A stretch of DNA of 64,000 nucleotides, from contig JAQVEZ010000001.1 of NCBI GenBank assembly GCA_028697455.1, forward strand, positions 67,902 to 131,901, written 5' to 3'. How positions within the stretch are numbered: the first letter of the stretch is position 1; each line of letters starts with the position of its first letter. The position numbers were made by a program, and so were the translations under genes. The DNA is from Minisyncoccota bacterium. Lineage in GTDB: Bacteria > Patescibacteriota > Minisyncoccia > Phycocordibacterales > UBA1006. This document shows, piece by piece, positions 6,829 to 50,599 of the stretch. A model generated the notes under the pieces. The model was given only the letters and a program-made list of their open reading frames with translations. It ran no database searches and was not told the origin of the DNA.

Positions 6829-6963
6829 GAAAAAACAGGAGACTTCTTAACCATAAGAGTCAAAAGTATATTGTTTTGCCACAACGGAAACAGGATAAGA
6901 GATATTATTAAAATGAGTTAATTTTATAAAAACCTAGAATAAATATTCTAGGTTTTTATGTAT

Positions 6964-23276: not shown

Positions 23277-24167
23277 TTAATCTTCAATGAAAAAATCTTC
23301 ATCAATTTCTTTTATAGAAAAAGTTTCCTTAATTTGAACTCCTAAATTATATTTAATCATTAGGTCTACTAATTTATCACCATTGATTAATATAATTTTA
23401 TGATTTCTTGCATCCCTTACTTTTTCTAAGGCTGCCTTATCAAAATCTGAAGTAGTAACAAAAATTCCTTTTGAGACATCACCAGACATTGCTCCAATAA
23501 AATTACGGATTTCTTTTTCTCCCACAAGGTTTGCTGTATATCTTTTTGCCTGAGTATAAATTCTCTCAACCCCTAAAGCATCTTGATTGATAATCCCATC
23601 AATTCCACCATCCCCAGATTTTTTTGTTTCTTGAAAATCTCCATAACCCATTTTTTGAAAAAGTTTTAAAATTATCTTTTCAAAATAATATGGATTTGAA
23701 ACTTTTAATTTTTCCAATAATTCAATTTTTAAATTCTCTTCAATATCAGCATATCCAACTTCAATCATTTCTTGAGATGACAAATCAGTGACTTTTATAT
23801 TTTCGTTATTTTCAGATTTTTTATTTTTTTGATATTTTTGAAAATCGAAATCATTTTGTATATATTCTTTTGTTAAATTTATCCCCTCCTTAAGAATATT
23901 TAATCCTTTATCGGTAATTTTTACATATCCTCTTTCTGGATAATCAACCATTTTTGCTACACGTAATTTTGATTTTGCGAAATGAATACGATTAAGTAAT
24001 GTATTGTCACCATTTTTTGGATTAACTCTATTTAAAACTTCTTCTGGCAAATGTGAATAAAAAGTATCTCTTACTTTTTCTTCAAGGTCTTTTCTGTGTA
24101 AAGTTTCTCCATTACTCAAAATCTTAAGTACTGGGATATATATTTCGTGGTATTTTGGCATTTCCAT
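23277..24167 (-). CDS. mrr: Mrr-like type IV (modification-dependent) restriction endonuclease
   Basis: An Mrr_N winged helix (PKYHEIYIPVLKIL...NRIHFAKSKL). An Mrr_cat domain (YYFEKIILKLFQKMGY...SGDGGIDGII...YTQAKRY...KGIFVTTSDF...LVDLMIKYNLGV) that aligns closely with E. coli Mrr. The track ORF begins at a TTG codon inside the T-box terminator, so the first ATG (MEMPKYHEI) is preferred. Confidence 0.85.
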   Translation of the reverse strand: MEMPKYHEIYIPVLKILSNGETLHRKDLEEKVRDTFYSHLPEEVLNRVNPKNGDNTLLNRIHFAKSKLRVAKMVDYPERGYVKITDKGLNILKEGINLTKEYIQNDFDFQKYQKNKKSENNENIKVTDLSSQEMIEVGYADIEENLKIELLEKLKVSNPYYFEKIILKLFQKMGYGDFQETKKSGDGGIDGIINQDALGVERIYTQAKRYTANLVGEKEIRNFIGAMSGDVSKGIFVTTSDFDKAALEKVRDARNHKIILINGDKLVDLMIKYNLGVQIKETFSIKEIDEDFFIED

Positions 24168-24189: not shown

Positions 24190-24395
24190 AAACAAAAAAT
24201 CGTCCGCAATCGATTAACTTATAATCTCTTGCAGGGACGATTTTGGATAACCGCGGTGCCACCCTGATTCCTGATGTGTATCAAGCGCTCTTTATTATTA
24301 GTCCAAAAATATCCTTAGACTTAATTTTTCACCTCAGCTGTGTCAAAGCGTCGTTGGTACATAAAATATAACAAAAATAAGCAAAAAAGAAAAGA
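24190..24395 (-). promoter_or_regulatory. T-box riboswitch leader (likely Asp-specific) upstream of mrr-aspS
   Basis: On the minus strand, AGGGUGGCACCGCGG at 24251-24265 matches the T-box consensus AGGGUGGNACCGCG exactly. The variable position C would pair with G73 of tRNA-Asp. A terminator helix AAAATCGTCC(CTGCAA)...(TTGC)GGACGATTTT with a U-tract follows at 24196-24244. Upstream there is a short stem I-like helix containing GGACUAA (GAC is an Asp codon). Confidence 0.55.
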
Positions 24396-24405
24396 TAGCA
24401 AAAAG

Positions 24406-24615
24406 CTATCTTTCTTTATAATTTTTATACATATCGGAGTTATCATTTCCAGAATAGAGATCATCAACTTCTTCCTTTGTTAAACCGAAACCATCAACGT
24501 CTTTTGGCTTCTCTGTGCCTGTTGGCTTTTGTTCTTGTTCTTGCTTTGGAGAAGAATTTTTACTTTCTGAATCCTTTTTTACTCTTTCTTCTTTTTGTGG
24601 TTTAAAATTTTCCAT
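24406..24615 (-). CDS. small acidic, low-complexity protein, unknown function
   Basis: A 69-aa K/E/S/D-rich protein on the same strand, downstream of the two paralogs. Confidence 0.4.
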   Translation of the reverse strand: MENFKPQKEERVKKDSESKNSSPKQEQEQKPTGTEKPKDVDGFGLTKEEVDDLYSGNDNSDMYKNYKER

Positions 24616-28083: not shown

Positions 28084-28506
28084 ATGGGAGATTTTAGAAA
28101 ACCATTTACCAAAAACAAAGGAGATACTGAACGAGTGATGCACAAAGCAGTTTGTGATACCTGTGGAAAGGATTGTGAAATCCCTTTTGAACCAACCAAA
28201 GGAAAGCCTGTTCTTTGTTCCGATTGTTTTAAAGCATCAGCACCACGAAAAGATTTTGGAAAGCCACGATTTGAACGTCCTTCTGGGAGACGAGATTTTG
28301 GGGAACGTCGAGAACGTCAGGAAAAGCCAGATATGTCCGAATCAGTTATGTTCCAAGTTGATAAACTTAAAAAACAAATTGATGCCTTGGAGCAGAAAAT
28401 TGATCTTATTGCTAAGGCTTTGAAGATAGCGGTACCAACCCAAAAGAAAACACTTGAAGGGCTCAAAGATACTCTTGAAAAAGCTCAGAAATCTGAAGAA
28501 GAATAA
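28084..28506 (+). CDS. zinc-ribbon (CxxC...CxxC) protein with basic linker and C-terminal coiled coil
   Basis: CDTCGKDCEIPFEPTKGKPVLCSDCF, followed by an R/E/F-rich stretch and a heptad-like tail. Confidence 0.6.
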   Translation: MGDFRKPFTKNKGDTERVMHKAVCDTCGKDCEIPFEPTKGKPVLCSDCFKASAPRKDFGKPRFERPSGRRDFGERRERQEKPDMSESVMFQVDKLKKQIDALEQKIDLIAKALKIAVPTQKKTLEGLKDTLEKAQKSEEE

Positions 28507-49120: not shown

Positions 49121-50599
49121 ATGTATACTATCTTTATGAAAAAGAGCGATGAGCGACTAGAAAAACTCTATGAATCTATTCGTGTTAAAACAACCTTAAA
49201 AGAGAAAAAACAAATTGAAAAAGCTTTTTTCTTTTCTCAAAAAGCTCATGAGGGGCAAACGAGAGCAAATGGTGACCCTTATTTTTCTCATGTCTATGCA
49301 ACAGCATTGAATCTTGCTGATTTTGGACTCGACGCTACAACAATTATTGCAGGGCTCCTCCATGACACCATCGAAGATACTTCTGTTTCACCAGAAGACG
49401 TTCAAAAAGAATTTGGAGAAGAAATTCTCTTTCTTGTTAACGGAGTGACAAAGCTTGGAACACTGCGCTATCACGGAAAAGAACGCCACGTTGAATCTCT
49501 TCGAAAATTTTTCATCGCAACAGCAAAAGATTTTCGTATTGTTGTTATCAAACTTGCAGACAGACTTCACAATATTCAGACCTTACAGTTTGTCAGACAA
49601 GACAAACAAAAAAGAATAGCCGTAGAAACGATTGAGATTTATGCCCCGCTTGCTTATCGACTCGGAATGGGACATGTCGTTGGTATGCTTCAAGATGCTG
49701 CTTTTCCTTTTGCATATCCAGAAGAAGCAAAAATGATTGATGACCTTCTCAAACAAAAGAAAAAGCTCAGTGAAAAGTATCTTGAAAAAGTTTGGAGATC
49801 TCTCAAGTCTGAAATGGCAAAACACCAAATCAAAGACATTACTACCCACCAGAGGGTAAAGGGTCGCTATAGCCTCTGGAAAAAACTCCAAAAGAAAAAA
49901 ATGGATATCGAACAGGTATATGACATTGTTGCTCTTAGAGTTATTGTCCCTACTGTCGATGATTGTTACAGAGTTCTTGGAATTATTCACTCAATGTGGA
50001 GACCTCTCCCGGGAAGAATAAAAGACTACATCGCGCTCCCTAAAATAAACGGTTATCAATCTCTTCATACAACGATTTTTACAGGAGATGGGGGTATTGC
50101 TGAAATTCAAATTAGAACCCCAGAGATGCATGCCTTTGCCGAATATGGACTTGCGGCGCACTATCTTTATAAAACAGGAAGAAAAAAGAGCGCCGATGCA
50201 CGATCTCTTGATTGGCTTCAACAACTCAAAGAACTCCAAGAAAATGAAAAGTCAGCAACATTCTTAAAAAATTTAAAAACTGATTTTTTCCAAGACAGGA
50301 TCTTCGTCTTTACTCCCTTGGGAGATGTTATTAATCTTCCTCAAGGAGCCTCTGCTCTTGATTTTGCTTATTCAATTCACACCGAAATTGGAAATACTGC
50401 TCAAGCAGCTATTATCAATGGAAAAAATTCAGCACTCAAAACTCAACTTGAAAATGGAGATATCGTTGAGATCCAAACCAACAAAAAAACAACACCTTCT
50501 TCAAAATGGCTCCCTTATGTAAAAACAACCCTCGCAAGAAAACACATAGAGAAATATACCAAAGAAAATAGTCTTTGGAATAAATTCTTTAAAAACTAA
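49121..50599 (+). CDS. rel: short bifunctional (p)ppGpp synthetase/hydrolase (HD, synthetase and TGS domains; no ACT domain)
   Basis: HD motif LHDTIEDT, the synthetase region RVKGRYSLWKKL...YQSLHTTI, and the TGS domain IFVFTPLGDVINLPQGASALDFAYSIH. Confidence 0.9.
   Translation: MYTIFMKKSDERLEKLYESIRVKTTLKEKKQIEKAFFFSQKAHEGQTRANGDPYFSHVYATALNLADFGLDATTIIAGLLHDTIEDTSVSPEDVQKEFGEEILFLVNGVTKLGTLRYHGKERHVESLRKFFIATAKDFRIVVIKLADRLHNIQTLQFVRQDKQKRIAVETIEIYAPLAYRLGMGHVVGMLQDAAFPFAYPEEAKMIDDLLKQKKKLSEKYLEKVWRSLKSEMAKHQIKDITTHQRVKGRYSLWKKLQKKKMDIEQVYDIVALRVIVPTVDDCYRVLGIIHSMWRPLPGRIKDYIALPKINGYQSLHTTIFTGDGGIAEIQIRTPEMHAFAEYGLAAHYLYKTGRKKSADARSLDWLQQLKELQENEKSATFLKNLKTDFFQDRIFVFTPLGDVINLPQGASALDFAYSIHTEIGNTAQAAIINGKNSALKTQLENGDIVEIQTNKKTTPSSKWLPYVKTTLARKHIEKYTKENSLWNKFFKN

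Follow-up and report, generated by a model that had tools for sequence, protein, structure and literature searches.

A probable tRNA-Asp-specific, terminator-type T-box riboswitch with an ultrashort stem I and no stem II upstream of mrr-aspS in a patescibacterial genome

T-boxes are a model system for the recognition of one structured RNA by another, and the prevailing structural view holds that capture of the tRNA needs either the elbow-binding platform of a long stem I or a module of stem II with IIA/B. According to earlier work, a truncated stem I alone has barely detectable affinity for tRNA, transcriptional T-boxes generally need a long stem I, and only glycine T-boxes do without stem II (PMC7583486, PMC11297988). 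Here we consider a leader on the minus strand of a 64,000-nucleotide (nt) stretch of DNA from a Minisyncoccota bacterium (GenBank assembly GCA_028697455.1, contig JAQVEZ010000001.1, positions 67,902 to 131,901; this whole stretch is called the window below, and its first letter is position 1), which lies in front of mrr, a restriction endonuclease gene, and aspS, the gene for aspartyl-tRNA synthetase (AspRS). This leader is very probably a tRNA-Asp-specific, transcription-attenuating T-box riboswitch controlling the leader-mrr-aspS transcript. It joins an ultrashort stem I and the absence of stem II to a terminator, a combination not described in PMC7583486 or PMC11297988. A full-text search of the literature, incomplete in its coverage, found no paper that connects T-boxes with Patescibacteria or the candidate phyla radiation, and the Patescibacteria aspS T-box family to which the leader belongs is previously unannotated.

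The actinobacterial ileS T-boxes (Mycobacterium, Nocardia; TBDB class II) share with the window leader a very short stem I that rises from a kink-turn (K-turn), an apical-loop specifier followed by a purine, the lack of an elbow platform and a canonical discriminator. The distance of the codon from the start of stem I, which is probably near the 5' end of the transcript, is also similar (~15-17 nt in the window and 16-18 in N. farcinica). They differ in possessing two features reported to be indispensable for binding the tRNA and absent in the clade of the window, a stem II S-turn and a stem IIA/B pseudoknot, and in acting through a Shine-Dalgarno sequestrator, whereas the window leader has an intrinsic terminator, an Asp specifier, an aspS context and a patescibacterial host. 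In TBDB the short-stem-I model is applied to Actinobacteria, and otherwise only to class I detections with a truncated stem I. The glyQS glycine T-boxes of Bacillus and Geobacillus resemble the window leader in their terminator/antiterminator pair, in having neither stem II nor IIA/B, and in the short single-stranded linker between stem I and stem III. However, their stem I is long, with an internal-loop specifier, a GGC codon and a distal double T-loop platform that sits on the tRNA elbow, as opposed to a 28-nt stem I with an apical specifier loop, GAC and no platform in the window. The hisS-aspS or aspS T-boxes of Firmicutes likewise regulate AspRS, carry a UGGC or UGGU bulge and act transcriptionally, but their stem II and their long stem I are of the canonical kind, and one of three tested passes the Rfam threshold, which no patescibacterial leader does.

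On the minus strand, positions 24265-24251 read AGGGUGGCACCGCGG, the exact T-box that the original prediction had picked out from the sequence alone. A search for the 14-nt T-box consensus AGGGUGGNACCGCG gives a single match in the 64-kb window and no match in 100 dinucleotide-preserving shuffles, and we therefore take the motif (exact over its 14 nt, AGGGUGGCACCGCG, 24252-24265) to be real and not a chance match. Within it, UGGC at 24261-24258 is predicted to pair with the tRNA's 3'-terminal GCCA. The antiterminator (24233-24265) is built from helix A1 (AGGG/CCCU, 24265-62 with 24236-33) and helix A2 (GCGGUU/AAUCGU, 24254-49 with 24242-37) around a 7-nt bulge, UGGCACC (24261-55). The closing pair of A2 is G24254•U24237, and across the family 23 sequences have G•U at this position, 16 have G-C and 7 have A-U. 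Upstream of the T-box stands the small stem III that had been seen from the start (24285-24270, CUUGAU-ACAC-AUCAGG, six base pairs (bp) and a 4-nt loop), followed by a conserved AA at 24269-24268; directly 5' of stem III lies the purine-rich AAAGAGCG (24286-24293), whose last five bases, GAGCG, fit the RRRxG (RAG) motif and whose counterparts in relatives read AAAGAGYG or AAAAGUG. The published signature of a discriminator is 5'-RRRxG-stem III-AA-3' plus a G•U wobble pair at the foot of helix A2 (PMC7583486; the RRRxG motif also in PMC11297988), and all the discriminator signatures published in these two papers are present in the window.

For comparison, relatives were collected by an AspRS scan with one genome per species, which gave 80 loci, 71 of them patescibacterial (labelled Paceibacteria, Parcubacteria, Campbellbacteria, Nomurabacteria and Kaiserbacteria), with AspRS 47-81% identical to that of the window. 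The exact core GGGUGGCACCGCG lies upstream of aspS and on the same strand in ~35 of the 71. A discriminator covariance model made from seven compact examples, R1, has one match upstream of aspS, on the aspS strand, in ~38 patescibacterial loci; its sole match in the window is 24293-24233 (68.4 bits), and it recovers the hisS-aspS T-boxes of Firmicutes as controls (L072-L079, 27-37 bits). In the 46-sequence discriminator alignment A6, made by seed-and-realign with Infernal (A5, then R1, then A6), 96% of the cells are paired and 13 of 15 pairs show compensatory changes, values that none of 500 shuffles reached, in an alignment that is structure-aware and fitted to the structure of the model, which favours pairing. 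All six pairs of stem III are compensatory, and A1 and A2 covary. A MAFFT alignment of hand-cut discriminators (A4) was out of register. The family is conserved upstream of aspS in Paceibacteria-type Patescibacteria.

At the Rfam gathering thresholds the window contains seven tRNAs only, and no RF00230. The scan with this T-box model that the original prediction had proposed does return the leader when run locally and permissively (24428-24230, minus strand, E = 1.1e-8 for that stretch), with 44.2 bits against a gathering score of 93, so that the threshold for membership is not reached. In the resulting alignment stem III, the T-box and the antiterminator are placed with high posterior probability and the 5' half is placed poorly, the base of stem I being mis-aligned onto the terminator of an upstream open reading frame (ORF) of 69 amino acids (24414-24390). 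What lowers the score is the departure of the 5' half from the canonical form, to which the discriminator conforms and the decoding half does not. Of the three Firmicutes hisS-aspS controls compared with the 93 bits, only L075 passes (96.9); L073 and L078 (about 2507-2603) fail, yet both are clear T-boxes by motif and by R1. Since two of three controls fail as well, the sub-threshold score reflects a limit of the model and says little against membership; many T-boxes can escape the default cut-off of Rfam. None of the 15 patescibacterial leaders tested reached the gathering score, and standard annotation therefore misses the Patescibacteria family.

The original prediction also had a terminator with a U-tract overlapping the 3' half of the T-box, and this was confirmed. 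The intrinsic terminator (24190-24244, minus strand) consists of a 19-bp hairpin (10+4+5 bp) at 24244-24196 (-21.6 kcal/mol) and the U-tract UUUUUUGUUU at 24199-24190. Its 5' arm, AAAAUCGUCC, is made of the 3' strands of A2 and A1, so the terminator reuses the antiterminator strand AAUCGUCC; with this strand shared, the two folds are mutually exclusive, as had been supposed, and an antiterminator alternative with UGGC in its bulge can be folded. Over 24293-24190 the terminator conformer, at -25.9 kcal/mol, is more stable than the antiterminator conformer, at -12.0 kcal/mol. Most relatives possess a corresponding terminator.

What this platform controls is most likely transcription of mrr-aspS. 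The platform is an intrinsic terminator and not a Shine-Dalgarno sequestrator, and no Shine-Dalgarno sequence is recognisable before mrr or aspS; transcriptional control is favoured because there is none to sequester. One might ask instead for a translational or dual T-box, in which the access of ribosomes to mrr would be controlled in place of, or besides, termination, as in the actinobacterial T-boxes with a short stem I; elsewhere an ultrashort stem I is a typical trait of translational T-boxes. A recognisable U-tract terminator is missing in five relatives (L011, L024, L026, L028, L046), and in three of them the T-box lies ~50 nt from the aspS start with no terminator (L011:3951-4001, L024:3948-4001, L026:2693-2747); these three may be translational variants or may have lost their expression platform. 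In the window, however, the helix that competes is an intrinsic terminator of the classic type, with a tract of six U, which ends 27 nt before the mrr ATG and leaves the start region outside, and we judge translational control of this leader to be very unlikely.

The decoding half of the leader is a 28-nt stem I (24331-24358, minus strand: ACC-AAC-GA-CGCU-UUGACAC-AGCU-GA-GGU). Its base is a K-turn formed by the C-stem ACC/GGU, a bulge of 3 nt and tandem G•A/A•G; to this are joined a helix of 3-4 bp and a 7-nt apical loop, UUGACAC. Across leaders the modules follow in a constant order: the 3-bp ACC/GGU, a 3-nt bulge, GA, a helix of 3-5 bp, a loop of 6-8 nt, the return strand, GA and the 3' strand. 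Our set of 34 such leaders comprises 27 found by strict structural search and seven read by hand; a looser regular expression was dropped for its spurious matches. The K-turn residues G7, A8, A25 and G26 are invariant in all 34. The pair that adjoins these G•A pairs is in most cases not of Watson-Crick type, a usual trait of K-turns. Covariation was evaluated in gapless, length-matched alignments, a MAFFT alignment of all modules (A1) being out of structural register. In A2 (14 sequences of the 4-bp class) the covariation score is 0.243 as against 0.126 in shuffles, and in A3 (13 sequences of the 5-bp class) seven of eight pairs show compensatory changes; none of 500 shuffles reached the observed value in either, and the signal was lost from both when the 3' partner was slid as a control.

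The apical loop displays the specifier GAC (24344-24342) followed by the purine A at 24341, complementary to the GUC anticodon of tRNA-Asp. In the fixed loop register of the 34 leaders the codon is GAC in 27, GAU in two (L012, L016) and AAC in five, and the next base is A, nearly without exception. The Asp assignment of the original prediction was therefore right and its basis was not: a GAC specifier does exist in a credible stem I, at 24358-24331 and inside the interval it had singled out, but this is not the hairpin it had named. That hairpin, at 24321-24300, does exist and does hold a GAC followed by U-A-A (GAC of GGACUAA, 24303-24301), so that one could take it for stem I. Yet its GGAC is fully paired in the 3' arm, its sequence is unrelated in the relatives and it is missing in at least nine of them, GAC is conserved there in none, and the conserved, covarying K-turn hairpin with its GAC+A loop sits 5' of it. 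The comparative data refute 24321-24300 as the specifier-bearing stem, a reading that we find extremely improbable.

The five AAC leaders would specify Asn (L013:2850-2877, L020:564-591, L031:3718-3746, L066:3721-3749, L070:3070-3098) and keep the UGGC bulge. They are scattered on a rough AspRS tree, so the switch from G to A in the specifier seems to have happened several times, and this toggling between Asp and Asn is consistent with an AspRS that is non-discriminating and charges tRNA-Asn too. Bacterial tRNA-Asp and tRNA-Asn have G73 as their discriminator base. The occurrence of AAC in relatives also lends something to the thought that the window leader might be specific for another tRNA (Asn or Ile), read from the run AAUAAUAA at 24299-24292. 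In the single-sequence minimum free energy fold, RNAfold pairs CGCUUU with AGAGCG and thereby leaves this run on the 3' side of an internal loop, where a canonical T-box would have its specifier. We rejected this fold since both of its strands belong to other conserved elements, CGCU to the covarying stem I and AGAGCG to the conserved RRRxG motif, and the pairing itself is not conserved; the A/U run varies freely in relatives and the loop codon of the window is GAC. To a specificity other than Asp we thus attach practically no credence.

The part of a canonical stem I that would contact the tRNA elbow, the distal AG bulge and distal loop of the double T-loop platform, is absent from the window leader, whose 28-nt stem I ends in the specifier loop and does not have the length to carry such a platform. 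The loop pattern Y-U-NNN-A-N, in our own reading of A2, would resemble a tRNA anticodon loop. Stem II is missing as well, in keeping with the reduced architecture that the original prediction had suspected. The 65 nt that separate stem I from the T-box contain no AGUA, and neither a stem II S-turn (GAA / AGUA) nor a stem IIA/B pseudoknot was found in the leader. The position of stem II is taken by the plain hairpin already mentioned (24300-24321, minus strand, AGUCUAAGG-AUAU-UUUUGGACU, containing GGACUAA at 24304-24298), which is fully paired and has no internal loop and no S-turn. Relatives have hairpins of unrelated sequence at this place (L003 GACUUU/AAAGGUC, L004 CCAGAG/CUCUGG, L006 AUUCCA/UGGAAU, L013 GAUUUUCU/AGAAAAUC) or none at all (L002, L010, L011, L012, L016, L018, L020-L022), and to judge from this comparison the hairpin is variable and dispensable. 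Throughout the clade of the window (L001-L022) AGUA is absent and a linker of 11-15 nt, sometimes interrupted by a plain hairpin, precedes RRRxG; the decoding module of this clade is stem I alone.

Ten deeper relatives (L024, L026, L028-L031, L043, L044, L056, L066) have, right after stem I, the S-turn signature GARGRAAGAA...AGUAGA and a segment like stem IIA/B, and so look like the actinobacterial short-stem-I T-boxes. On the AspRS tree, which is a neighbour-joining tree without support values, stem II leaders occupy several deep branches and leaders without stem II stand at three places: the clade of the window (~20 species), L046/L049/L050, and L055. These three separate positions seem to reflect at least three independent losses of stem II that left the remaining leader in place, and because the deeper relatives keep stem II, the window leader is a derived, minimal, terminator-type T-box.

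Should such a leader be regarded as a T-box in decay? On that account the loss of stem II would have abolished tRNA sensing and left a constitutive, leaky terminator or an inert 5' untranslated region. The literature on the ileS T-boxes of Mycobacterium and Nocardia, in which a short stem I requires stem II for tRNA binding, speaks for it, as do the sub-threshold RF00230 score and the five relatives lacking a recognisable terminator. Against it, the clade without stem II, ~20 species whose AspRS is 64-81% identical to that of the window, keeps the K-turn, the GAC+A loop, the exact T-box, RRRxG and the terminator while the linker drifts freely; stem I is maintained by compensatory changes inside this very clade, and the rest of the leader was retained through each of the apparent losses, at least three in number. 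Decay is, in our estimation, quite unlikely.

On the observed motifs, mutually exclusive folds, conservation, covariation and gene context one may build a prediction of tRNA binding, charge sensing and regulatory outcome. Transcription would start just upstream of 24358, and the first 28 nt would fold into the K-turn hairpin, whose apical loop UUGACAC would display GAC+A in a manner similar to an anticodon loop and pair with the GUC anticodon of tRNA-Asp. If this tRNA is uncharged, its free 3' GCCA would pair with UGGC in the T-box bulge; this pairing would stabilise the discriminator (the RAG purines, stem III, A1/A2) and keep the 3' strand AAUCGUCCCU from the terminator, and RNA polymerase would read into mrr and aspS. 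If it is charged, the discriminator would remain unstabilised, and the more stable terminator hairpin (24244-24196) with its U-tract would form and stop transcription before mrr. The leader most likely switches on the aspartyl-tRNA synthetase operon, then, when tRNA-Asp is uncharged. How the tRNA would be held admits several options: the intrinsic stability of an anticodon-loop-like GAC:GUC loop-loop kissing complex with two G-C pairs may suffice, a protein helper may assist, or a degenerate S-turn may form from the conserved GAAA and AAUA (YAUA) flanks of the variable hairpin.

Several points weigh against our interpretation of the leader as a working attenuator, beyond the RF00230 score below threshold and the favouring of pairing in A6. 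Without platform and stem II, the leader might be weak, dependent on a helper or non-functional. No tRNA-Asp or tRNA-Asn gene was found in the window or in 35 loci, and the match between G73 and UGGC is an expected one. The promoter is proposed from a conserved -10-like element only, namely the putative extended -10 element TGtTATATT at 24365-24373 (minus strand), which would put the transcript start at about 24361-24358, at the foot of stem I; TGnTAnAAT stands at a fixed distance of 6-8 nt upstream from the ACC of stem I in the window, L002-L013 and L016, and a generic sigma-70 scan did not report the element. Also, a secondary mrr promoter may lie in the AT-rich 24190-24168, between the terminator and the gene. 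In L013, we note in passing, ARAGORN finds a tRNA-like gene of undetermined identity with a four-base anticodon, tata (6863-6937, minus strand).

A stronger proposal would be that the leader is a naturally minimal T-box, recognising its tRNA only through the apical specifier loop and the NCCA-binding bulge and still taking a co-transcriptional termination decision; here our opinion is evenly divided. Its sensing core measures ~125 nt in the window and ~100 nt in some relatives, for instance L002 and L011. If this is true, the family would contradict both the rule that a truncated stem I needs stem II and the rule that transcriptional T-boxes need contact with the elbow, and it would be the smallest working T-box, to which genome-reduced Patescibacteria would have come by losing stem II repeatedly, as well as the smallest natural scaffold for engineered tRNA-responsive switches. 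A conserved family without either module would in any case be a test of the rule for tRNA capture. Patescibacteria, whose gene regulation is almost unstudied, very probably use tRNA-sensing attenuation for aspS, by elements that standard Rfam annotation misses entirely.

That mrr and not the synthetase gene comes first was noted as unusual in the original prediction, and the relatives offer an explanation. The gene (24167-23277, minus strand, ATG at 24167) encodes a full-length Mrr-type restriction endonuclease of 296 amino acids with Mrr_N and Mrr_cat domains, and its stop is 15 nt from the start of aspS (23261-21840, minus strand). The original prediction had proposed a look at orthologous aspS loci for the same leader with or without an intervening mrr; among the 71 patescibacterial loci none has an Mrr between leader and aspS, and aspS followed by scpA-scpB is conserved. 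The same leader-mrr-aspS arrangement was found on one other public contig, L081 from SRR22315504. The distance from T-box to aspS start in relatives is either 50-115 nt or 164-1100 nt, and the long gaps hold varied genes: small predicted membrane proteins (L001, L003, L004, L009), a serine hydrolase (L012:3424-3987), an HIT protein with an unassigned ORF (L013:3070-3965), HEPN-domain proteins (L016:3469-3960 and L018:3488-3994, both weak, sub-threshold matches), a YbaK-type aminoacyl-tRNA editing protein (L070:3250-3735) and proteins without known function (L010, L021, L023, L046). In the window the mrr ATG stands 97 nt from the T-box, which is the position of the aspS start in L002, L006 and L007, and the aspS start AUGAAACGAACA is unchanged. 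With such varied and unrelated genes in the slot and Mrr in none of the 71 loci, we conclude that the insertion of Mrr is specific to this lineage and that the slot is one invaded recurrently; Mrr is a passenger and not the designed target, and its control by the T-box is probably a by-product.

Several of the slot genes, Mrr included, are of defence type and would be co-induced when tRNA-Asp is uncharged. One may speculate that the slot serves as a landing pad that puts defence-type cargo (Mrr; HEPN in L016 and L018) under the control of tRNA charging, a thought that we consider unlikely.

The AspRS of the window is of bacterial type, 473 amino acids long and without the insertion (GAD) domain: it matches NF001750 at 607 bits, in two stretches of this 590-amino-acid model, and gives no GAD hit. 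The same length is seen in patescibacterial relatives, and the matches of L072-L079 (Firmicutes, actinobacterial) are ~100 residues longer. Downstream of aspS follow scpA and scpB. No terminator-like site was found between mrr and aspS, the next one on the minus strand being a hairpin at 21573-21547, after aspS and a small ORF, which is a pattern match only and the probable end of the operon. At the other side, the terminator hairpin of the upstream 69-amino-acid ORF (24390-24414, minus strand) forms the 5' boundary of the leader region.

By model R1, no T-box discriminator lies upstream of the genes in the window for LeuRS (47125-44534), LysRS (54511-53024) or a class Ib enzyme (27160-26186), all on the minus strand; within the 64 kb, therefore, the T-box is specific to aspS. 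The window also encodes a RelA/SpoT homologue (HD_4, RelA_SpoT and TGS domains; 49121-50599, plus strand), and the organism may thus have a second sensor of uncharged tRNA beside the T-box.

A T-box-like discriminator in another context was seen in L069, a metagenome-assembled genome labelled Saccharibacteria. There, AAGGUGGCACCGUAG (1250-1365, R1 24.9 bits), accompanied by a strong terminator and a U-tract, stands immediately upstream of a gene for a phosphoenolpyruvate carboxylase of archaeal type (PEPcase_2, 1377-2879) and 2.7 kb upstream of aspS. Phosphoenolpyruvate carboxylase makes oxaloacetate, the precursor of aspartate.

A second, weak T-box motif in the window, GGTTGGTACCGCT at 28428-28440 (minus strand), was set aside as a chance match: it has two mismatches and no R1 match, and it is antisense within an ORF of the plus strand. 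This ORF (28084-28506, 140 amino acids) is zinc-ribbon-like, with two CxxC pairs and a lysine-/glutamate-rich tail, and fills what appeared to be a long intergenic gap.

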